Below, piece after piece: positions 3,238 through 31,308 of a DNA stretch of 31,308 bases. The notes beneath the pieces were generated by a model. It saw nothing but the letters and a program-made list of their open reading frames with translations. It was not told the DNA's origin and made no database searches. The translations under genes and the position numbers were made by a program. The stretch lies in the IMG/VR virus record IMGVR_UViG_2690316224_000023. The stretch is one strand, 5' to 3'. Each line of letters begins with the position of its first letter. Within the stretch, counting starts at the first letter, position 1. Source of the stretch: a virus. Lineage: Duplodnaviria; Heunggongvirae; Uroviricota; Caudoviricetes.

Positions 3238-3509
3238 GTATTCGTATTGAAATTGGCGAACGTTATGTCGTTACCAGTGACAGCTTTCAGTTTATTCTCC
3301 ACGAGAAAAAGAGAGCGGAAAGCGGTAAAAACGCCGGTCAGGAATGGCTGGCGGTGGTTGGTTATTACCCGAAATTAAGCCAGCTCGTTTCCGGCCTGAT
3401 GCATCACGATATTCTGACCGGAAGCGCAAAGTCTTTTGCTGATTTAAACGCGCAGGTTGAGCAACTCAGCAAGCGTTGTTCAGAGGCTTTTGGCTCATAT
3501 GGCCGTTAA
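3234..3509 (+). CDS. Small early protein (P2 orf83 position)
   Basis: 91-aa ORF; start overlaps the previous stop; ends at TAA 3507-3509, overlapping the probable A start. Confidence 0.5.
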   Translation: MSIRIEIGERYVVTSDSFQFILHEKKRAESGKNAGQEWLAVVGYYPKLSQLVSGLMHHDILTGSAKSFADLNAQVEQLSKRCSEAFGSYGR

Positions 3510-5787
3510 AGCCTCCGGGCGTTTTGTCCCTCCGTCAGCATTTGCCGCAGGCACCGGTAAGACGTTTACCGGTGCTTATGCATGGAACGCGCCACGCGAG
3601 GCTGTCGGGCGCGAAAGACCCCTTACACGTGACGAGATGCGTCAGGTGCAAGGTGTTTTATCCACGATTAATCGCCTGCCTTACTTTTTGCGCTCGCTGT
3701 TTACTTCACGCTATGACTACATCCGGCGCAATAAAAGCCCGGTGCACGGGTTTTATTTCCTCACATCCACTTTTCAGCGTCGTTTATGGCCGCGCATTGA
3801 GCGTGTGAATCAGCGCCATGAAATGAACACCGACGCGTCGTTGCTGTTTCTGGCAGAGCGTGACCACTATGCGCGCCTGCCTGGAATGAATGACAAGGAG
3901 CTGAAAAAGTTTGCCGCCCGTATCTCATCGCAGCTTTTCATAATGTATGAGGAACTCTGCGATGCCTGGGTGGATGCGCATGGCGAGAAAGAATCACTGT
4001 TTACGGATGAGGCGCAGGCTCACCTGTATGGTCATGTTGCTGGCGCTGCACGTGCTTTCAATATTTCCCCGCTCTACTGGAAAAAATACCGTAAAGGGCA
4101 GATGACCACGAGGCAGGCATATTCTTCCATTGCCCGTCTGTTTAACGATGAGTGGTGGACTCATCAGCTTAAAGGCCAGCGTATGCGCTGGCATGAGGCG
4201 TTACTGATTGCTGTCGGGGAGGTGAATAAAGACCGTTCTCCTTATGCCAGCAAACATGCCATTCGTGATGTACGTGCACGCCGCCAGGCAAATCTGGAAT
4301 TTCTTAAATCGTGTGACCTTGAAAACAGGGAAACCGGCGAGCGCATCGACCTTATCAGTAAGGTGATGGGCAGTATTTCTAATCCTGAAATTCGCCGGAT
4401 GGAGCTGATGAACACCATTGCTGGCATTGAGCGTTACGCCGCCGCAGAGGGTGATGTGGGGATGTTTATCACGCTGACCGCGCCGTCAAAGTATCACCCG
4501 ACACGTCAGGTCGGAAAAGGCGAAAGTAAAACCGTCCAGCTAAATCACGGCTGGAACGATGAGGCATTTAATCCAAAGGATGCGCAGCGTTATCTCTGCC
4601 ATATCTGGAGCCTGATGCGCACGGCATTCAAGGATAATGATTTACAGGTCTACGGTTTGCGTGTCGTCGAGCCACACCACGACGGAACGCCGCACTGGCA
4701 TATGATGCTTTTTTGTAATCCACGCCAGCGTAACCAGATTATTGAAATCATGCGTCGCTACGCGCTCAAAGAGGATGGCGACGAAAGAGGAGCTGCGCGA
4801 AACCGTTTTCAGGCAAAACACCTTAACCGGGGCGGTGCTGCGGGGTATATCGCGAAATACATCTCAAAAAACATCGATGGCTATGCACTGGATGGTCAGC
4901 TCGATAACGATACCGGCAGGCCGCTGAAAGACACTGCCGCGGCTGTTACCGCATGGGCGTCAACGTGGCGCATTCCGCAATTTAAAACGGTTGGCCTGCC
5001 GACAATGGGGGCTTACCGTGAACTACGCAAATTGCCGCGCGGCGTCAGCATTGCTGATGAGTTTGACGAGCGCGTCGAGGCTGCACGCGCCGCCGCAGAC
5101 AGTGGTGATTTTGCGTTGTATATCAGCGCGCAGGGTGGGGCAAATGTCCCGCGCGATCGTCAGACTGTCAGGGTCGCCCGTAGCCCGTCGGATGACGTTA
5201 ACGAGTACGAGGAAGAAGTCGAGAGAGTGGTCGGCATTTACGCGCCGCATCTCGGCGCGCGTCATATTCATATCACCAGAACGACGGACTGGCGCATTGT
5301 GCCGAAAGTTCCGGTCGTTGAGCCTTTGACTTTAAAAAGCGGCATCGCCGCGCCTCGGAGTCCTGTCAATAACTGTGGAAAGCTCACCGGTGGTGATACT
5401 TCGTTATCGGCTCCCACACCGACTGAGCACGCCGCAGCAGTGCTTAATCTGGTTGATGAGGGTGTCATCGAATGGAGTGACCCGGAGGTCGTGAAGGCGC
5501 TCAGGGGCGCATTAAAACACAACCTGAGAACACCAAATCGTCAGCAAAGAAACGGAAGCCCGTTAAAACCATATGAAATGGCACCATCGGCCAGACTGAC
5601 CAGGTCGGAACGAATGCAAATTACCCGTATCCGTGTTGACCTTGCTCAAAAGGGTATCAGGCCGCAGCGATGGGAGCTCGAAGTGTTGGCACGAGGCGCT
5701 ACTGTTAGTTATGAGGGACAAAATTTTGCATTCACGGATAGCCATGACTGGAGTGGTTTTGCTGAACACTTTGATCTTTTTGAGTAA
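3499..5787 (+). CDS. A: Rolling-circle replication initiator, P2 gpA-like (ORF track start 3457; ATG 3499 gives 762 aa, close to the 761 aa I recall for P2 A)
   Basis: HUH motif (GTPHWHMMLF) and paired catalytic tyrosines (GYIAKYISKN) typical of rolling-circle Rep endonucleases; position after the early small ORFs. Confidence 0.9.
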   Translation: MAVKASGRFVPPSAFAAGTGKTFTGAYAWNAPREAVGRERPLTRDEMRQVQGVLSTINRLPYFLRSLFTSRYDYIRRNKSPVHGFYFLTSTFQRRLWPRIERVNQRHEMNTDASLLFLAERDHYARLPGMNDKELKKFAARISSQLFIMYEELCDAWVDAHGEKESLFTDEAQAHLYGHVAGAARAFNISPLYWKKYRKGQMTTRQAYSSIARLFNDEWWTHQLKGQRMRWHEALLIAVGEVNKDRSPYASKHAIRDVRARRQANLEFLKSCDLENRETGERIDLISKVMGSISNPEIRRMELMNTIAGIERYAAAEGDVGMFITLTAPSKYHPTRQVGKGESKTVQLNHGWNDEAFNPKDAQRYLCHIWSLMRTAFKDNDLQVYGLRVVEPHHDGTPHWHMMLFCNPRQRNQIIEIMRRYALKEDGDERGAARNRFQAKHLNRGGAAGYIAKYISKNIDGYALDGQLDNDTGRPLKDTAAAVTAWASTWRIPQFKTVGLPTMGAYRELRKLPRGVSIADEFDERVEAARAAADSGDFALYISAQGGANVPRDRQTVRVARSPSDDVNEYEEEVERVVGIYAPHLGARHIHITRTTDWRIVPKVPVVEPLTLKSGIAAPRSPVNNCGKLTGGDTSLSAPTPTEHAAAVLNLVDEGVIEWSDPEVVKALRGALKHNLRTPNRQQRNGSPLKPYEMAPSARLTRSERMQITRIRVDLAQKGIRPQRWELEVLARGATVSYEGQNFAFTDSHDWSGFAEHFDLFE

Positions 5788-6017: not shown

Positions 6018-8225
6018 CTAAGCGGTAGTGTCTTCTATATTCTTTTTCTCTTCATACATTTTATTAAAATGTGAAATATCTCCCATAAGTCTAAATATCT
6101 CTTTAAATTGTGTGATGTATATGTCGGGTGTTATTTCACCCATATCTGTTATGTTTATCGAATCTGAGTGTGAACCTCTATTTATATATCTATAGAAAGC
6201 CTTGAAATTACTATTGCTTTCATTTTGTGCAAGCCTGTTCAATTCATCTTGTAACTCGTTAGTTTTATGAACAAATGCAAAGTAATATTCTAAGATGTTT
6301 CTCATTGTATTAGGGATAACTACATTGTGAACTTTTCCATCTCTGGCATCCTTGAGTATTTGCCATAAAGATTGATATTCATTTTGCAAACTATCTCTGC
6401 TGATGTTAGAAAAAGAACTATGTAGGTTTTTTGTTATTCTAAAAAGCTGATAGGTGCTATTGAATTTCCTTTCTGAAATTGGAGCTAACTTTATTAGCTC
6501 ATGAAAAAAATATAGATTATGAGTGAGGATTATCACTTTATTAGCAGAAGTGAAAATGTCATAGTGAATCATCGATGCTATATCATAGATATAGTTCTGA
6601 GAGAGACTTGAAATAGGATCGTCAATGACGATTAAACTGTCTCGGTTGTCGAATTCATCTGTGTTTGTTTGTCCCTTACAATATTCAATAAAATAGAGAA
6701 ATGTAATGAGAGTTTTTTCACCTTCGCTAAGAGATCTATATACATTTTTACTTGGTGTATTATCTGAGCGAACTATAACGAAACTATTTTTTATGGTTGG
6801 ATGTTTATCAATGTAGAAACAGGTAATGCCAAGGTTTTTTAATTTTGAGTTTATCGAGGAGATTGTTGTGTCGATATCGGATGTTTTATTTCTTAATTCC
6901 TTTATTTCATCATCAGTGTGTTTGATTTCTTTGTTAATAGAATCAATGCTTTCTTCGAGACTCTTGATAATGATGTCGTTTTCGGCTTGAATTTTCTCTA
7001 AAACCTCAAAGTCTGTATTGCGGTAGTTTCTCAATGCTCCCCAAAACTGATTTTTTATTTTATCTTGAGTAAGGTTAAATTGTTTTACCTTTTCATTAAG
7101 GTCATTAATTCTAGAGTTATATTGTTTTATGTCTTTTAGAAGAGATTCCTCAATATCTTTATCTTTATCAAGAGTTACGCTGAGTGACGGGTTTTGTATC
7201 TTGTTATTAATTAACTCAATGTTACTTTTTAGCATTTTCTCAAGGGAAGAAATGTGAGCAAGACTAGTTTTTCTTTCTTCAATTGAGATTGCTGTACAGT
7301 CATTTAACTGTGTTTTTAGTAATTGAAGTTGTTCTTGAGTAGTTAATTCATAAATATATTTTAATTTTTCAATTGATGTTATTTTCTGAGCGTAGCTCTC
7401 ATCAAAAATTTGCTCGAGCGCCTCTGTGAATTTATCATCAATGGTTTCTTTTTGACAAAAAGGGCAAATGTCGCCAACTAAATAATTTTCTTTACCTTTT
7501 TTAACCCAATCGAGATTCTGAAGCTTTTTGATTGTTTCTGATAGATAGCTATTGCTAGAATCAATGACAGGAGTCTTTAATAAATTTTCATCATCAAAAG
7601 AAATAGGGTAAGGATTATATGGAGATATTGTTTGTATGGTGGTGTTTTTATGATTCAATAACTCTCTGTAGTCAGTTAATAATTGATTTAAATCTATATC
7701 AGGTAATCTAATAGAAGACTTTACCTTTGTGAAAAGGTTTCTTTTATTCTTAAGGTACCCTGCCATTAATGAGTTGACATCAGAGTTTCTTATGTATTCG
7801 GTATTTAACCATATTGATTCAGTACAACTTGTTTCTGCATCATGATTGCGGTCTTTAATTTTTTGATAATTTGTTTTTGTTGCCTCTAGTTTTATTTTTA
7901 ATGTTTTAACTATTTCTCTTTTCTTACTTATCTCTTTTTCGATCTCGGTATTTTCTTTGCTTAATGTAAAAATCCCTTTTTGAACATCTTTATCAAAGAA
8001 GTTGTCTTCAATGAACTTTGTATTATAAACCAATGGACGATAGTTATTAATGTTTGTGCAGCGGCAGTCCCTATAGTCATCGTCTGCTGGATTATAGAAA
8101 AAATTTGATATGGTAGATTTCCCAGCTCCGTTTTGCCCGTAAAGGATATTTATTCTTTTTTCGAGGGATATTTTCGTATATTTATTTTTGTCGTAGCTTG
8201 TTACATTTTTTAGACTAAGTTCCAT
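6018..8225 (-). CDS. Cargo gene: 735-aa ABC/SMC-like ATPase with coiled-coil/CxxC insert and C-terminal putative nuclease domain; candidate anti-phage defence protein (RloC/PrrC-like architecture)
   Basis: Walker A GQNGAGKST (nt 8112-8138), CPFC (7455-7466), ABC signature-like LSEGEK (6714-6731), Walker B LIVIDD (6618-6635), H-loop ILTHN (6516-6530), C-terminal R642-x3-E646 ... H653/H686; strongly AT-rich against GC-rich phage flanks; sits where P2 has old/tin. Confidence 0.8.
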   Translation of the reverse strand: MELSLKNVTSYDKNKYTKISLEKRINILYGQNGAGKSTISNFFYNPADDDYRDCRCTNINNYRPLVYNTKFIEDNFFDKDVQKGIFTLSKENTEIEKEISKKREIVKTLKIKLEATKTNYQKIKDRNHDAETSCTESIWLNTEYIRNSDVNSLMAGYLKNKRNLFTKVKSSIRLPDIDLNQLLTDYRELLNHKNTTIQTISPYNPYPISFDDENLLKTPVIDSSNSYLSETIKKLQNLDWVKKGKENYLVGDICPFCQKETIDDKFTEALEQIFDESYAQKITSIEKLKYIYELTTQEQLQLLKTQLNDCTAISIEERKTSLAHISSLEKMLKSNIELINNKIQNPSLSVTLDKDKDIEESLLKDIKQYNSRINDLNEKVKQFNLTQDKIKNQFWGALRNYRNTDFEVLEKIQAENDIIIKSLEESIDSINKEIKHTDDEIKELRNKTSDIDTTISSINSKLKNLGITCFYIDKHPTIKNSFVIVRSDNTPSKNVYRSLSEGEKTLITFLYFIEYCKGQTNTDEFDNRDSLIVIDDPISSLSQNYIYDIASMIHYDIFTSANKVIILTHNLYFFHELIKLAPISERKFNSTYQLFRITKNLHSSFSNISRDSLQNEYQSLWQILKDARDGKVHNVVIPNTMRNILEYYFAFVHKTNELQDELNRLAQNESNSNFKAFYRYINRGSHSDSINITDMGEITPDIYITQFKEIFRLMGDISHFNKMYEEKKNIEDTTA

Positions 8226-8467: not shown

Positions 8468-8486
8468 GGCGAGGCGGGGAAAGCAC
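8468..8486. other. cos site (19-nt cohesive end) of a P2-type phage
   Basis: GGCGAGGCGGGGAAAGCAC matches the P2 cohesive-end sequence as I remember it; located between the A-side cargo and portal gene Q, where P2 cos lies. Confidence 0.65.
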
Positions 8487-8655: not shown

Positions 8656-9690
8656 TCAGCCGTTGTCAGTGTCCAGTGAGTAGTTTTTAAAGCGGATGAC
8701 CTCCTGACCGAGCCAGCCGTTTATCTCGCGGATCCTGTCCTGTAGCGGGATAAGCTCATTGCGGACAAAGACCTTTGCCACTTTCTCAATATCACCCAGC
8801 GACCCGACGTTCTCCGGCTTGCCGCCCATCAACTGAAAGGGGATGCGGTGCGCGTCCAGCAGGTCAGCGGCGCTGGCTTTTTTGATATTAAAAAAATCGT
8901 CCTTCGTCGCCACTTCACTGAGCGGGATAATTTTAATGCCGTCGGCTTTCCCCTGCGGGGCATAGAGAAACAGGTTTTTAAAGTTGTTGCGGCCTTTCGA
9001 CTTCACCATGTTTTCGCGAAGCATTTCGATATCGTTGCGGTCCTGCACGGCATCGGTGACGTACATGATGTATCCGGCATGTGCGCCGTTTTCGTAATAC
9101 TTGCGGCGGAACAGCGTGGCTGACTCATTCAGCCAGGCAGAGTTAAGGGCGCTGAGATATTCCGGCAGGCCGTACAGCTCCTGATTAATATCGGGCTCCA
9201 GCAGGTGAAACACGGAACCGGGCGCGAAGGCTGTCGGCTCGTTGAAGGACGGCACCCACCAGTAAACATCCTCCTCCACGCCACGGCGGGTATATTTTGC
9301 CGGTGAGGTTTCCAGTCTGATGACCTTACCGGTGGTGCTGTAACGCTTTTCCAGAAACGCATTACCGAAAACCAGAAAATCCAGCACAAAGCGGCTGAAA
9401 TCCTGCTGGGAAAGCCACGGGTGCGGGATAAACGTTGAAGCCAGAATATTACGTTTGACGTAAATCGGTGAGCTGTGATGCACGGCAGCACGCAGACTTT
9501 TTGCCAGACCGGTAAAGCTGACCGGTGGCTCATACCATCTGCCGTTACTGATGCATTCGACGTAATCCAGAATGTCACGGCGGTCGAGTACCGGCACCGG
9601 TTCGCCAAAGGTGAATGCCTCCATTTTCGGGGCGCTGGCGGTCATTTTTTTTGCCGCAGGTTGCAGTGTTTTCCCTTTTTTCTTGCTCAT
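8656..9690 (-). CDS. Q: Portal protein, P2 gpQ-like
   Basis: 344 aa, matching the P2 gpQ length I recall; first gene after cos, co-oriented and overlapping with the large terminase gene. Confidence 0.9.
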   Translation of the reverse strand: MSKKKGKTLQPAAKKMTASAPKMEAFTFGEPVPVLDRRDILDYVECISNGRWYEPPVSFTGLAKSLRAAVHHSSPIYVKRNILASTFIPHPWLSQQDFSRFVLDFLVFGNAFLEKRYSTTGKVIRLETSPAKYTRRGVEEDVYWWVPSFNEPTAFAPGSVFHLLEPDINQELYGLPEYLSALNSAWLNESATLFRRKYYENGAHAGYIMYVTDAVQDRNDIEMLRENMVKSKGRNNFKNLFLYAPQGKADGIKIIPLSEVATKDDFFNIKKASAADLLDAHRIPFQLMGGKPENVGSLGDIEKVAKVFVRNELIPLQDRIREINGWLGQEVIRFKNYSLDTDNG

Positions 9691-19672: not shown

Positions 19673-20276
19673 TTCGCGCCTGCTGCCGACCGGCTCATCA
19701 CCACTTGAAGTCGCCGCCGCAAAAGCCTGTGCGGAAATTGAAAAAACGCCGGTCAGTATTCGTGAGCTGTGGAACCCGGATACCTGTCCGGCAAATCTGC
19801 TGCCGTGGCTGGCGTGGTCATTTTCTGTTGACCGCTGGGATGATAAGTGGCCGGAAGCGACAAAACGCGCTGTTATCCGCGATGCGTATTTCATTCACTG
19901 CCATAAGGGCACTATAGGCGCAATCCGGCGTGTGGTGGAGCCGCTCGGCTATCTGATTGAGGTGAGGGAGTGGTGGCAACTCAACGAGGAGCCGGGGACG
20001 TTCCGTATCGTTGTTGGTGTGCTTGAGCAGGGTATTACCGAGGAAATGTATCAGGAGCTGGAGCGCCTCGTTGCTGATGCAAAACCGGCAAGCCGCCATC
20101 TGACGGGACTGGCTATCAGTTTAAGTACAACCGGCAACATTTTTGCCGGTGCGGGATGCTATCACGGTGACGCCCTGACGGTTTATCCCTACACCCCGGA
20201 GGCCATTATTGTCGGAGGGGATTATTTCCCGGCCTCGGCCATTCATTTAATTGATAACCTGAGAGTAAACGCATGA
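19665..20276 (+). CDS. I: Baseplate protein, P2 gpI-like
   Basis: 203-aa ORF; start overlaps the J stop and stop overlaps the H start (ATGA); position. Confidence 0.8.
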   Translation: MSDSRLLPTGSSPLEVAAAKACAEIEKTPVSIRELWNPDTCPANLLPWLAWSFSVDRWDDKWPEATKRAVIRDAYFIHCHKGTIGAIRRVVEPLGYLIEVREWWQLNEEPGTFRIVVGVLEQGITEEMYQELERLVADAKPASRHLTGLAISLSTTGNIFAGAGCYHGDALTVYPYTPEAIIVGGDYFPASAIHLIDNLRVNA

Positions 20277-21394
20277 CAGTGAAATACTACGCCATTCTGA
20301 CTAATCAGGGCGCAGCACGGCTGGCTAACGCGACGATGCTCGGCAGTAAGCTGAATCTGACGCAAATGGCCGTTGGTGATGCGAATGGTGTCTTGCCGAC
20401 ACCAGACCCGGCACAGACAAAACTGATTAACCAGAAACGCATTGCACCGCTGAATCTTCTGAGTGTTGACCCGAACAACCAGAGCCAGATTATTGCGGAG
20501 CAAATCATCCCTGAGAACGAGGGCGGATTCTGGATCCGTGAGATTGGGCTTTATGATGATGAAGGCGTACTCATTGCGGTGGCGAACTGCCCGGAAACGT
20601 ACAAACCGCAGTTGCAGGAAGGCAGTGGTCGTACCCAGACTATCCGCATGATTCTGGTTGTCACGAATACCGAAGCTATCACGCTGAAAATCGACCCGTC
20701 GGTGGTACTGGCGACCCGTAAATACGTGGATGATGAAGTCCTGGAATTAAGGCTGTATGTGGATGACCAGATGAGAAACCACATTGCCGCACAGGATCCT
20801 CATACCCAGTATGCGCAGAAACATAATCCGACATTTACCGGAGAACCAAAAGCGCCGACGCCTGCCGCAGGAAATAACACCACGCGGATTGCGACCACTG
20901 AGTTTGTTCAGGCCGCTATTACCGCTCTGATTAACGGTGCGCCTGACACGCTGGACACACTGAAAGAAATTGCCGCAGCCATTAACAATGACCCGAAATT
21001 CAGCACCACCATTAACAATGCGCTGTCAGGTAAGCAGCCACTGGATGAGACGCTGACTCATTTGAGTGGAAAGGATGTTGCCGGTCTTCTCGCATACCTT
21101 GGTTTTGGAGAAGGTGCTAACTGGGTTATGTTACCTGGAGGAATGATAATTCAGCGTGTTTATCTTGGATTTCCTGTTGGCACCAATGTAAGACACATAA
21201 CTTTCCCCCGGTCGTTTACAACAACGAACTATTCCATCTCAATTAACTGGAATGATATCGGTACTGTAACAACTGAAACACAATCACCAGCAAATGTGGC
21301 GGTTGTTCATCAAACAAAATCATTAACAGGGGCCAGCATCTGGCAGGCAGGTCCCGGGGGATTTAATGTGGACATTATAGCGGTGGGGTATTGA
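20273..21394 (+). CDS. H: Tail fibre protein H in its current orientation (373 aa): constant N-terminal part plus a switchable C-terminal part beginning inside the invertible segment
   Basis: N-terminal phage tail-fibre domain; the left recombination site falls at codons about 276-282 (GFGEG); the 3' part shares that junction motif with the inverted cassette. Confidence 0.85.
   Translation: MTVKYYAILTNQGAARLANATMLGSKLNLTQMAVGDANGVLPTPDPAQTKLINQKRIAPLNLLSVDPNNQSQIIAEQIIPENEGGFWIREIGLYDDEGVLIAVANCPETYKPQLQEGSGRTQTIRMILVVTNTEAITLKIDPSVVLATRKYVDDEVLELRLYVDDQMRNHIAAQDPHTQYAQKHNPTFTGEPKAPTPAAGNNTTRIATTEFVQAAITALINGAPDTLDTLKEIAAAINNDPKFSTTINNALSGKQPLDETLTHLSGKDVAGLLAYLGFGEGANWVMLPGGMIIQRVYLGFPVGTNVRHITFPRSFTTTNYSISINWNDIGTVTTETQSPANVAVVHQTKSLTGASIWQAGPGGFNVDIIAVGY
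21099..21117. repeat. Left inverted repeat / recombination site of the invertible tail-fibre segment (gix/hix-like)
   Basis: TTGGTTTTGGAGAAGGTGC matches the reverse complement of 22828-22846 at 18 of 19 positions; resembles the right half of the Gin/Hin site consensus (CCGAGGTTTTGGATAA). Confidence 0.6.
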
Positions 21395-21395
21395 T

Positions 21396-21824
21396 ATGTA
21401 CGTATGGAGCGCTAAAGCAAATGGCTTTTTCCCCATATCGGAGAAAGAAAAATTTGAGGCATCAGGCCTGTGGCCTGATGATGGTGTAATAGTCAGTGAG
21501 GAAGAACATAAAAAGTTATTTATGGATATTCCACCAGGAAAACAGATTGGAACACTGAATGGAAAACCAGCACTGATAGATATTCCTCAGCCGACCAAAA
21601 AGGAATTAATAGCTATTGCTGAAGTTAAAAAATCCCAATTACGGGAAAAAGCTGACAGTGAAATATCCTGGCGTCAGGATGCTGTTGATGCTGATATCGC
21701 AACTGATGAAGAAGCTACAACTCTCACCCAATGGAAGAAATACCGTGTGCTGCTGATGCGTGTTGATACGTCAACAGCACCCGATATTGAATGGCCTACG
21801 CCTCCGGCAGTTCAGGCCAGATGA
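21396..21824 (+). CDS. G: Tail fibre assembly protein (P2 gpG / Mu U-like), active orientation
   Basis: 142 aa; conserved Tfa C-terminal motif (TAPDIEWPTPP); convergent with and overlapping the alternative tfa'. Confidence 0.8.
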   Translation: MYVWSAKANGFFPISEKEKFEASGLWPDDGVIVSEEEHKKLFMDIPPGKQIGTLNGKPALIDIPQPTKKELIAIAEVKKSQLREKADSEISWRQDAVDADIATDEEATTLTQWKKYRVLLMRVDTSTAPDIEWPTPPAVQAR

Positions 21825-22389
21825 CATCCGGCGCGGTGCTGGTATCTGTTGCCGTCACCGCGTCAATGTAATCCAGCACGGCGTTAAGTCGGGTTGTTTC
21901 TGCCTGAGTCAGTTTCCGTCCGGCCTGTAATTTCAGCTGAATCAGACTGATGGAAGCCATTGCAGCATCAATCAGTGACTGGCGCTGTGCTTCTGCCGCT
22001 TCTACTGCGGCACCGTGTTGTGCCTCAGTATCTGTCACCCATTTCTCACCATCCCATTTATCATATGGCGTTAACGGTGAAAGCGTGACATAACCGTTTT
22101 TGATGGCACCGATATAATCCACTGTAACAGCAGCACCATTTTCGATTGAGTAAACAGTCTCATTGCGATGATCTTCTTCATGGCTCCATCCCTTACCTGT
22201 AAATACTGCCACTCTTCCCAGAATGTTTTCGCCAGGGTCAATTCCAGTGGAACAGGCGGGCATACTTACGCCAGTATTAATATATTCATCAGACCAGCCC
22301 GTATACTCAGATGTTTCAGCATCATAATAAAAACAACGCATATCGCCCGGCACTGTAGCCAGCCCATTTTTATCAAAAACAGGTTTCAT
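21796..22389 (-). CDS. Alternative tail fibre assembly protein (tfa', Mu U'-like), currently in the inverted orientation
   Basis: 197 aa; same C-terminal Tfa motif (TAPDVIWPELPEA); 3' end overlaps the 3' end of G. Confidence 0.75.
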   Translation of the reverse strand: MKPVFDKNGLATVPGDMRCFYYDAETSEYTGWSDEYINTGVSMPACSTGIDPGENILGRVAVFTGKGWSHEEDHRNETVYSIENGAAVTVDYIGAIKNGYVTLSPLTPYDKWDGEKWVTDTEAQHGAAVEAAEAQRQSLIDAAMASISLIQLKLQAGRKLTQAETTRLNAVLDYIDAVTATDTSTAPDVIWPELPEA

Positions 22390-22846
22390 TATTTAGCCCT
22401 CACCAGAAAGTTAAATGCAATATTTCGCGGTCTGACAGCAACAAAATTCACACCATCACCCGCAGAGTTACTGGTGAAATTAAATCGTGAAAATCCTGGC
22501 TGATTTCCGGTGATGCCATCATGAAAGTTAATTGCGTGTCCCGCACCTCCGCCTATATTCCCGGCAAACTGAGAAAAGTTTGTAGCTTCCTGCCAGCTTA
22601 ATAATTCGCGACCACCATCTGCACCTCGCCCGTCATCCCAGATACGAATGAAATCACCGCGGGCTTCAGGTAATACCAGCGAAGGAAACACTTTCGCCAG
22701 CACAGGGTAATCAGAGGCAGAAAATTTCGCCCCGTTGAACTTCAAAAACACCATACCGGACCAGCTGTCGATTACAGTATTTGGCATTGCCGCGGAGGGC
22801 CAGAAGAACGGAACGCCAATAGCTGGGGCACCTTCTCCCAAACCAA
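22389..22846 (-). CDS. Alternative tail-fibre C-terminal cassette (H-variable'), promoterless; would fuse to H codons 1 to about 281 after inversion
   Basis: Minus-strand ORF 22389..22886; the GLGEGAP junction at codons 15-21 is encoded by the right inverted repeat; Gly-rich fibre-tip-like sequence. Confidence 0.65.
22828..22846. repeat. Right inverted repeat / recombination site of the invertible segment
   Basis: GCACCTTCTCCCAAACCAA is the reverse complement of 21099-21117 with one mismatch. Confidence 0.6.
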
Positions 22847-22913
22847 CGTTTAAGAAAATGCAGAGATAGCGGCTAACTGGCATCATCTCCGGTTTTTATT
22901 CAGGGGATCCGTC

Positions 22914-23507
22914 ATGCTTATTGGCTATGTCCGCGTATCAACAAATGACCAGAACACGGAATTGCAGCGTAACGCACTGGAGTGTGCAGGATGTGAGCTG
23001 ATTTTTGAGGACAAAATCAGCGGCACGAAGTCCGACAGACCGGGGCTGAAAAAACTGCTCAGAACATTATCGGAAGGTGACACTCTGGTTGTCTGGAAGC
23101 TGGACAGGCTGGGGCGTAGTATGCGGCATCTGGTCATTCTGGTTGAGGAACTGCGCGAACGCGGCGTTAATTTTCGCAGCCTGACGGATGCTATTGATAC
23201 CAGCACGCCGATGGGGCGTTTTTTCTTTCATGTGATGGGTGCTCTGGCTGAAATGGAGCGAGAACTCATTGTCGAGCGGACACGCGCCGGACTGGAAGCG
23301 GCCAGAGCCAAAGGTCGTATTGGTGGCAGACGACCGAAACTCACCACGAGTGAGTGGGAGCAGGCCGGACGGTTGCTGGCTGCAGGGGAGTCACGTCAAC
23401 GCGTGGCACTGATTTTTGATATTGGTCTGTCCACGCTCTATAAAAAATTTCCCTCATCAGCGACAAAGAATAAATTGTGTCATCCCTTAGCCAACCGGGA
23501 CAAATAG
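22914..23507 (+). CDS. Serine site-specific DNA invertase (Hin/Gin/Pin/Cin family)
   Basis: 197 aa; N-terminal resolvase catalytic domain with the active-site serine (MLIGYVRVSTNDQN), conserved DRLGRS region, C-terminal HTH; lies directly next to the invertible segment. Confidence 0.9.
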   Translation: MLIGYVRVSTNDQNTELQRNALECAGCELIFEDKISGTKSDRPGLKKLLRTLSEGDTLVVWKLDRLGRSMRHLVILVEELRERGVNFRSLTDAIDTSTPMGRFFFHVMGALAEMERELIVERTRAGLEAARAKGRIGGRRPKLTTSEWEQAGRLLAAGESRQRVALIFDIGLSTLYKKFPSSATKNKLCHPLANRDK

Positions 23508-30324: not shown

Positions 30325-30405
30325 ATCCTCAATTTGCCTGCTGCTTAATGCATTGCAGATGATTTGCTTCCGTTATACTAGCGTCAGTTGATAGCGGGAG
30401 TATTT

Positions 30406-31308
30406 ATGAATCAATCTTATGGACGGCTGGTCAGTCGGGCGGCGATTGCTGCGACGGCGATGGCTTCGTTGCTATTGCTGATTAAAATTTTTGCATGGTG
30501 GTATACCGGGTCGGTGAGTATTCTCGCCGCGCTGGTGGATTCGCTGGTGGATATCGGCGCGTCGTTGACGAATTTATTGGTGGTGCGATATTCCCTGCAA
30601 CCTGCCGACGATAATCACTCGTTTGGTCACGGTAAAGCTGAGTCCCTCGCGGCGCTGGCGCAAAGTATGTTTATCTCCGGTTCGGCACTATTCCTGTTTT
30701 TGACGGGTATTCAACATCTGATATCTCCAACACCGATGACAGATCCAGGCGTCGGGGTTATCGTGACAATTGTGGCGCTAATTTGTACGATTATCCTTGT
30801 CTCGTTTCAGCGTTGGGTGGTGCGGCGGACGCAAAGCCAGGCGGTGCGGGCTGATATGCTACATTACCAGTCTGATGTTATGATGAACGGCGCAATTCTG
30901 CTGGCGCTGGGGTTGTCCTGGTACGGCTGGCATCGCGCCGATGCTCTGTTTGCATTGGGAATCGGCATCTATATTTTATATAGCGCGTTACGCATGGGAT
31001 ATGAGGCGGTACAGTCATTACTGGATCGCGCATTGCCTGATGAGGAACGGCAAGAAATTATTGATATCGTGACTTCCTGGCCGGGTGTTAGCGGCGCTCA
31101 CGATCTTCGCACGCGGCAGTCAGGGCCGACCCGCTTTATTCAGATTCATTTGGAAATGGAAGACTCTCTGCCTTTGGTTCAGGCACATATGGTGGCGGAT
31201 CAGGTAGAGCAGGCTATTTTACGGCGTTTTCCGGGATCGGATGTAATTATCCATCAGGACCCCTGTTCCGTCGTACCCAGGGAGGGTAAACGGTCTATGC
31301 TTTCATAA
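30406..31308 (+). CDS. fieF: Host cation-diffusion-facilitator ferrous-iron/zinc efflux transporter FieF (YiiP); 300 aa from ATG 30406 (ORF track begins at 30388)
   Basis: Sequence matches E. coli FieF/YiiP as I remember it, including metal-site residues at D45/D49 (LVDSLVD) and H153/D157 (LHYQSD); GC content and codon style differ from the adjacent prophage. Confidence 0.9.

Follow-up and report, generated by a model that had tools for sequence, protein, structure and literature searches.

The window, meaning the whole 31,308-nucleotide stretch of DNA that was analysed, comprises nearly all of a P2-like prophage. An integrase gene (1-1011) is followed by a gene for a gpA-type replication endonuclease, by portal and terminase genes from 8656 onwards, and then by tail genes. 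The integrase at the left end belongs to the tyrosine type, and the right end (30388-31308) is occupied by a host cation-efflux gene resembling FieF/YiiP. No tRNA genes were found in the window. Further along the prophage, an invertible tail-fibre segment of the Gin/Cin/Pin type occupies positions 20273-23507, and its components are listed in Table 1.

The gpA-type gene and the portal gene Q form the two borders of a cargo hotspot, which here holds one gene encoding a protein of 735 amino acids. A 19-nucleotide cos-type sequence, GGCGAGGCGGGGAAAGCAC, has a single exact match between the terminator of the portal gene and the cargo gene, with none expected by chance. We take this sequence, at 8468-8486, to be the P2 cohesive-end (cos) sequence. 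The cargo gene stands alone: no other credible open reading frame was found between gpA and GGCGAGGCGGGGAAAGCAC, and the cargo includes no partner open reading frame. Its GC content is 0.29-0.31, compared with 0.52-0.58 in the flanks. The gpA-cos-Q position of the cargo matches the cos-proximal hotspot described in PMC9122126, at which P2 itself carries old and tin (PMC9122126).

Table 1. Positions of the cargo gene, its motifs, and surrounding prophage features in the window.
Feature	Position	Strand	Basis or remark
P2 gpA-type replication endonuclease, left border of hotspot	3457..5787	+	ORF; homologous position annotated 'replication endonuclease' in APEC loci
rloC-like gene, 735 aa, single-gene cargo	6018..8225	-	ORF; ABC ATPase, coiled-coil/zinc-hook insert, predicted C-terminal ACNase domain
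Predicted C-terminal ACNase (HEPN-type) domain, residues 578-725	6051..6494	-	modelled as beta-hairpin then helical bundle
R679-Y-I-N-R-G-S-H686, predicted catalytic His preceded by Ser	6168..6191	-	H686 invariant, S685 at least 90% conserved
R642-N-I-L-E646, Arg and Glu of predicted catalytic triad	6288..6302	-	invariant; motif counterpart GkaRloC R692/E696, EcoPrrC R320/E324 (PMC2610378)
H-loop (switch) histidine H569	6519..6521	-	invariant in 64 homologues; 93/94 in another alignment
Walker B / D-loop L531-I-V-I-D-D-P537	6615..6635	-	D535, D536, P537 invariant (64 homologues)
ABC signature motif L499-S-E-G-E-K504	6714..6731	-	L499, S500, G502, E503 invariant (64 homologues)
CXXC zinc-hook motif C254-P-F-C257, apex of coiled-coil insert	7455..7466	-	C254, F256, C257 invariant
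Walker A / P-loop G29-Q-N-G-A-G-K-S-T37	8115..8141	-	G30, N32, G35, K36 invariant (64 homologues)
19-nt cos-type sequence	8468..8486	+	one exact match, between portal-gene terminator and cargo gene
P2 portal protein Q, right border of hotspot	8656..9690	-	ORF; 94-97% nt identity to P2-like phage portal genes
Tail-fibre gene with Phage_tail_fib N-terminus	20273-21394	+	part of invertible segment
31-nt inverted repeats	21087-21117 and 22828-22858		in invertible tail-fibre segment
Two opposed Caudo_TAP assembly genes	21396-21824 and 21796-22389	+ and -	part of invertible segment
Alternative fibre C-terminal ORF	22389-22886	-	part of invertible segment
Serine invertase (Resolvase + HTH_7)	22914-23507	+	adjoins tail-fibre segment

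Residues 1 to about 575 of the cargo protein constitute a Rad50-like ABC ATPase, the head of which is split by a coiled coil of about 350 residues with a CPFC zinc hook at its tip. In the full-length AlphaFold2 model (mean pLDDT 84), long helices at residues 90-141 and 276-448 divide the ABC head and lie on either side of the CXXC motif, with the CPFC loop between them. A Foldseek comparison of this model with the PDB returned Rad50 as the best match (E 1e-7), followed by SMC heads, AriA, and PtuA. Since H569 is the H-loop histidine, the interval 6018-6515, consisting of the stop codon and residues 571-735, does lie downstream of the H-loop, as the preliminary description of this DNA had proposed. 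The residues that it had singled out in this interval were all recovered from the minus-strand reading frame, namely R642 (6300-6302), E646 (6288-6290), H653 (6267-6269), S685 (6171-6173), and H686 (6168-6170). In the model of the C-terminal domain (pLDDT 79, pTM 0.71), R642 and E646 are placed on one helix, and S685-H686 follow a helix that ends at residue 682, in the least confident region. The predicted HEPN fold of this domain is weakly supported by structure comparison.

An Arg-x3-Glu pair with a downstream His is a short motif, and the preliminary description had regarded it as weak evidence when taken alone, an assessment with which the chance expectation agrees. When the C-terminal 165 amino acids are shuffled, 20% of the resulting sequences contain the pattern R-x3-E-x36-52-H, and 2.3% contain the version with Ser before His; the motif by itself is not significant against chance. 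R-x3-E occurs only twice in the whole 735-residue protein, at position 497, inside the ABC signature region, and at position 642. What lifts the triad above chance is the conservation of R642, E646, and H686 across homologues. A search of a collection of 5.8 billion proteins yielded 99 homologues, with identities of 24-99%, all of which carry Pfam PF13166. [quoted passage not shown] A lack of conservation among homologues, which would have spoken against the catalytic reading of these three residues, was thus not what the alignment revealed.

The same picture emerges when the C-terminal domain is aligned separately. Among 37 sequences, down to 15% identity, the domain has no invariant columns other than R642, E646, and H686, and S685 and N639 are conserved in at least 90%. 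An independent sample of 76 species-representative genomes (29-43% identity) retains R642 in 74, E646 in 71 (with Asp in four more), and both S685 and H686 in 73 each, while the two zinc-hook cysteines are kept together in 75/76. R679 is kept in 74 of the 76 close-clade species representatives and gives way to Ser in the more remote sequences of the C-terminal-domain alignment. This pattern identifies R642-x3-E646-x39-S685-H686 as the conserved set. The spacing R679-x6-H686 fits the HEPN Rx4-6H pattern.

RloC proteins were defined by Davidov and Kaufmann (2008) on the basis of three features: ABC ATPase motifs, a CXXC zinc hook within a coiled coil, and an anticodon nuclease (ACNase) triad (PMC2610378). 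The triad takes the form of a C-proximal Arg-X3-Glu-X36-52-His, often with Ser before the His (PMC2610378). All three features are present in the cargo protein, which bears out the kinship with PrrC/RloC ACNases that had been suggested for it. The ATPase motifs are GQNGAGKST (29-37), LSEGEK (499-504), VIDDP (533-537), and H569. The putative zinc hook is the invariant C254-P-F-C257, flanked by long helices in a protein whose top structural match is Rad50. The C-terminal R642-x3-E646-x39-S685-H686 has a Glu-His spacing of 39, inside the range of 36-52. In size, the protein falls within the 658-897 amino acids of the family, and it is encoded by a single-gene cargo between gpA and cos/Q that has no restriction-modification (R-M) silencer. 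It is also 52% identical, over its full length, to a 738-residue RloC orthologue from Escherichia coli APEC O1.

Database models agree with this assignment. Pfam AAA_13 matches the protein from end to end (residues 10-711 aligned to positions 4-712 of the 713-position model, E 1.7e-110). Taken by themselves, the last 158 residues reach 67.5 bits against model positions 589-712, so the family model extends over the nuclease domain. In PADLOC the protein is assigned to PDC-S06 (E 5e-249), and its full-length PHROGs family is phrog_2801, labelled as of unknown function. More distant homologues bear the source name "wobble nucleotide-excising tRNase" (JGI), and identity to these JGI-labelled RloCs is 24-28%. 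Distant homologues in the Streptococcus phages Javan102/105/108/112 are named "translation-disabling ACNase" by their source. A degenerate DNA pattern for the zinc-hook peptide CAFCGNKID of the Geobacillus kaustophilus protein GkaRloC (read by OCR from Fig. S1, PMC2610378) had no match in the genome contigs. A profile search seeded by the most distant homologues recovered only a Burkholderia/Enterobacteria RloC clade of 798-809 amino acids, and no Geobacillus member.

The gene at this position has been encountered before. The APEC O1 protein, YP_852004, is RloC orthologue #51 in Table S1 of the original description, where it is given as 738 amino acids long and flanked by "Phage replication initiation, Capsid" (PMC2610378). 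The only such gene in the APEC O1 genome stands between a P2 replication endonuclease gene and a portal gene. Anantharaman et al. (2013) grouped PrrC, RloC, and the prophage-borne "APECO1_4465" ABC-HEPN proteins together in the HEPN superfamily, and YP_852004 is probably the APECO1_4465 prototype of that group. Table S5B of Rousset et al. (2022) lists, for the P2 gpA-Q hotspot, a system #5 named "AAA_13", with 420 occurrences and annotated as "RloC-like". The sequence of system #5 is 92.7% identical to the cargo protein over the 399 amino acids listed. Both proteins share the gpA-cos-Q hotspot, the architecture, and the motifs of the cargo protein, although relative to APEC O1 the window holds another allele or sub-clade. 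The gene is therefore not new, because its family, its motif, and the exact P2-hotspot gene were already described in 2008, 2013, and 2022.

Comparison with characterised systems places the cargo protein closest to RloC in overall design. With GkaRloC and AbaRloC (the Acinetobacter baylyi protein), it shares the domain order of ABC ATPase, coiled-coil/CXXC insert, and C-terminal R-x3-E-x36-52-(S)H, and like them it is encoded by one gene with no silencer linked to it. Its zinc-hook block resembles, at the level of motif, the WVxxG...CxFC form of GkaRloC (Fig. S1, PMC2610378). It is shorter, however, at 735 vs 804/826 amino acids, and is carried by a P2-like prophage, whereas the characterised RloCs are found on a chromosomal island. 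PrrC likewise combines an ABC-type NTPase N-domain with a C-terminal ACNase domain and has, by motif, the same Arg-x3-Glu...His triad; its residues R320, E324, and H356, named in the preliminary description, are those given in PMC2610378. Unlike the cargo protein, with its helical insert of about 350 residues bearing CPFC, PrrC has no coiled-coil/zinc-hook insert. PrrC is always found within a silencing type Ic hsd locus (EcoprrI), while the neighbours of the cargo gene are P2 gpA, cos, and the portal gene. PrrC is also activated by T4 Stp and nicks the anticodon loop without excising the wobble base, and the Glu-His spacing is 31 in EcoPrrC vs 39 in the cargo protein. Given the coiled-coil/zinc-hook insert and the location outside an hsd locus, the cargo protein is not a PrrC. 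To the kinship originally suggested it can thus be added that the protein is RloC-like rather than PrrC-like, having a Rad50-like coiled coil with a zinc hook and no R-M partner.

Two further groups of ATPases are related in part. Rad50 and SbcC have in common with the cargo protein an ABC head that is interrupted by an antiparallel coiled coil bearing a CXXC zinc hook, but Rad50 has no C-terminal RNase domain, works with the partner Mre11/SbcD, and acts on DNA. P2 Old and PARIS AriA/AriB, from P2/P4 hotspots, are abortive-infection systems that, like the cargo, are built on an ABC ATPase and located at similar phage or satellite hotspots, and the outcome of AriB action is the cutting of tRNA, as predicted for the cargo protein. 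In both systems a Toprim nuclease serves as effector, as part of a fusion in Old and as the separate protein AriB, whereas the cargo protein has no Toprim domain.

Taken together, the cargo gene probably encodes an anticodon nuclease of the RloC family, carried as the single-gene cargo of the cos-proximal hotspot of a P2-like prophage, with R642, E646, and H686 as its predicted catalytic residues. Four other readings need to be weighed against this one. The C-terminal domain could be a HEPN-type RNase with a target other than tRNA, such as mRNA or rRNA, so that 'anticodon nuclease' would be the wrong label for the short prophage clade. The low identity (24-28%) to the JGI-labelled RloCs points this way, as do the wide variation in the substrates of HEPN RNases and the decision of Anantharaman et al. 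(2013) to set the prophage APECO1_4465 group apart from RloC proper. Nevertheless, the cargo protein has kept in common with RloC the triad, its spacing, the Ser ahead of the His, and the entire regulatory architecture, and PrrC and RloC, both of them characterised relatives, cut anticodon loops (PMC2610378). A non-tRNA target is accordingly considered unlikely.

The C-terminal domain might instead be a non-catalytic module for regulation, RNA binding, or oligomerisation, with the nuclease encoded elsewhere, as in Rad50-Mre11 and AriA-AriB. The top structural matches of the ATPase (Rad50, AriA, and PtuA) are all partner-dependent machines, and the domain has no significant match to solved structures or HEPN profiles. 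Specifically, Foldseek of the C-terminal domain model against the PDB found nothing significant, a sequence search of the PDB with the protein and the C-domain profile gave chance matches only (ribosomal S3, RhoGAP, and RGS17), and a search of the 37 C-terminal-domain sequences against Pfam at E<=10 detected no HEPN family. Against such a module stands the fact that invariance within the domain is confined to an Arg, a Glu, and a His, a combination of the catalytic type. The cargo also has no partner open reading frame. Furthermore, GkaRloC requires every one of the same three residues (R692, E696, and H737) for its ACNase activity and for its toxicity, and the activity co-purifies with the protein (PMC2610378). 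A purely structural or regulatory role for the domain therefore appears improbable.

The identity of the catalytic histidine is a narrower question. The preliminary description named H653 first, and this residue is located 7 positions past E646 on the same predicted helix, so that a triad R642-E646-H653 would be contained within one helix. Only 50 of 90 homologues and 18 of 76 species representatives have His at this position, with G, E, Y, R, or Q in the others, and H653 was rejected as the catalytic His on these grounds. H686 is the candidate instead, because it is invariant in both alignments and follows a Ser, in keeping with the RloC motif, while H653 is variable. A triad with H653 is thus very improbable; of the PrrC/RloC-type triad first put forward, R642, E646, and H686 stand, with a spacing that fits the RloC motif, and H653 does not. 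Finally, an OLD or PARIS AriB Toprim-type DNA nuclease, which could be imagined because P2 carries old at the same hotspot and weak ATPase-level matches to AriA were seen, can be dismissed as hardly credible, since the AriA similarity is limited to ATPase motifs and Pfam searches of the whole protein and the C-terminal domain revealed no Toprim, as had been noted at the outset, and no other nuclease domain.

Among 5,426 complete E. coli genomes, the RloC-like gene is present at 93% identity or more in 17, and the 738-residue allele in 44. All of the E. coli copies are annotated in RefSeq only as "AAA family ATPase". The 90% cluster also takes in Salmonella, and relatives at 30-40% identity are spread over many phyla of bacteria; among species representatives, at least 563 loci were confirmed. 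Of 50,697 deposited phage records, a single one gave a match of more than about 27% identity: the unannotated 31-kb Enterobacter phage ENT4, with a homologue at 52% identity (PV844615.1, 3413-5593). IS elements break up the gene in some genomes of E. coli (NZ_CP148363.1 and NZ_CP146687.1), and many of the Salmonella sequences in the 90% cluster are fragmentary. Such interrupted or fragmentary copies could reflect counter-selection of a toxic gene, or simply places where the assembly of an AT-rich gene broke off.

More distant RloC-like AAA_13 paralogues of 726-731 amino acids occur in other E. coli strains (L002, 5524-7719; L003, 5479-7659; L004, 5448-7643). Those of L002 and L004 are situated in an integrase-bearing island at tRNA-Phe, adjoining an AbiEii/DUF6088 pair, and that of L003 is found among IS elements, a truncated integrase, and an N-6 DNA methylase. 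Weak E. coli matches that had been considered as prrC were rejected, as they proved to be RloC-like paralogues in tRNA-Phe islands adjoining AbiEii.

By analogy with the characterised members of the family, we infer that the cargo protein is an RNase with a tRNA target, and we likewise derive its trigger and its anti-phage role from them. Mutating the zinc hook of GkaRloC de-represses its nuclease, which is activated by DNA, linear DNA in particular, together with ATP hydrolysis and excises the wobble nucleotide (PMC2610378; Klaiman et al., 2012). In Acinetobacter baylyi, inducers of double-strand breaks switch on the native RloC against tRNA-Glu and tRNA-Gln. On the basis of homology with these two proteins, a zinc-hook/ATPase switch would hold the cargo nuclease silent. 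During infection, a signal from DNA ends or DNA damage, through the binding of DNA ends and ATP hydrolysis, may then turn it on. The active nuclease would cut tRNA anticodon loops, possibly with excision of the wobble nucleotide, and the resulting arrest of translation could lead to abortive infection, protecting the population of P2 lysogens and excluding competing phages.

The nuclease chemistry of RloC is known, and its biological role has been inferred. Klaiman et al. (2012) called for the natural hosts and cognate phages of RloC to be found, and a 2025 study indicates that the defence role is still only inferred. An RloC-like gene with 420 listed occurrences at the P2 hotspot of E. coli would offer a convenient system in which to test for an anti-phage role. 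Annotation could also be improved, given that RefSeq labels the gene only as 'AAA family ATPase' and PHROGs as 'unknown function'. A more tentative suggestion is that the short, cos-adjacent clade of about 735 amino acids differs in function from the long RloCs, for example by responding to the linear ends of incoming or packaging phage DNA rather than to host damage, and by having tRNA targets of its own. If true, an RloC could here for the first time display a clear anti-phage phenotype in a natural host that is amenable to genetics, namely E. coli lysogens.
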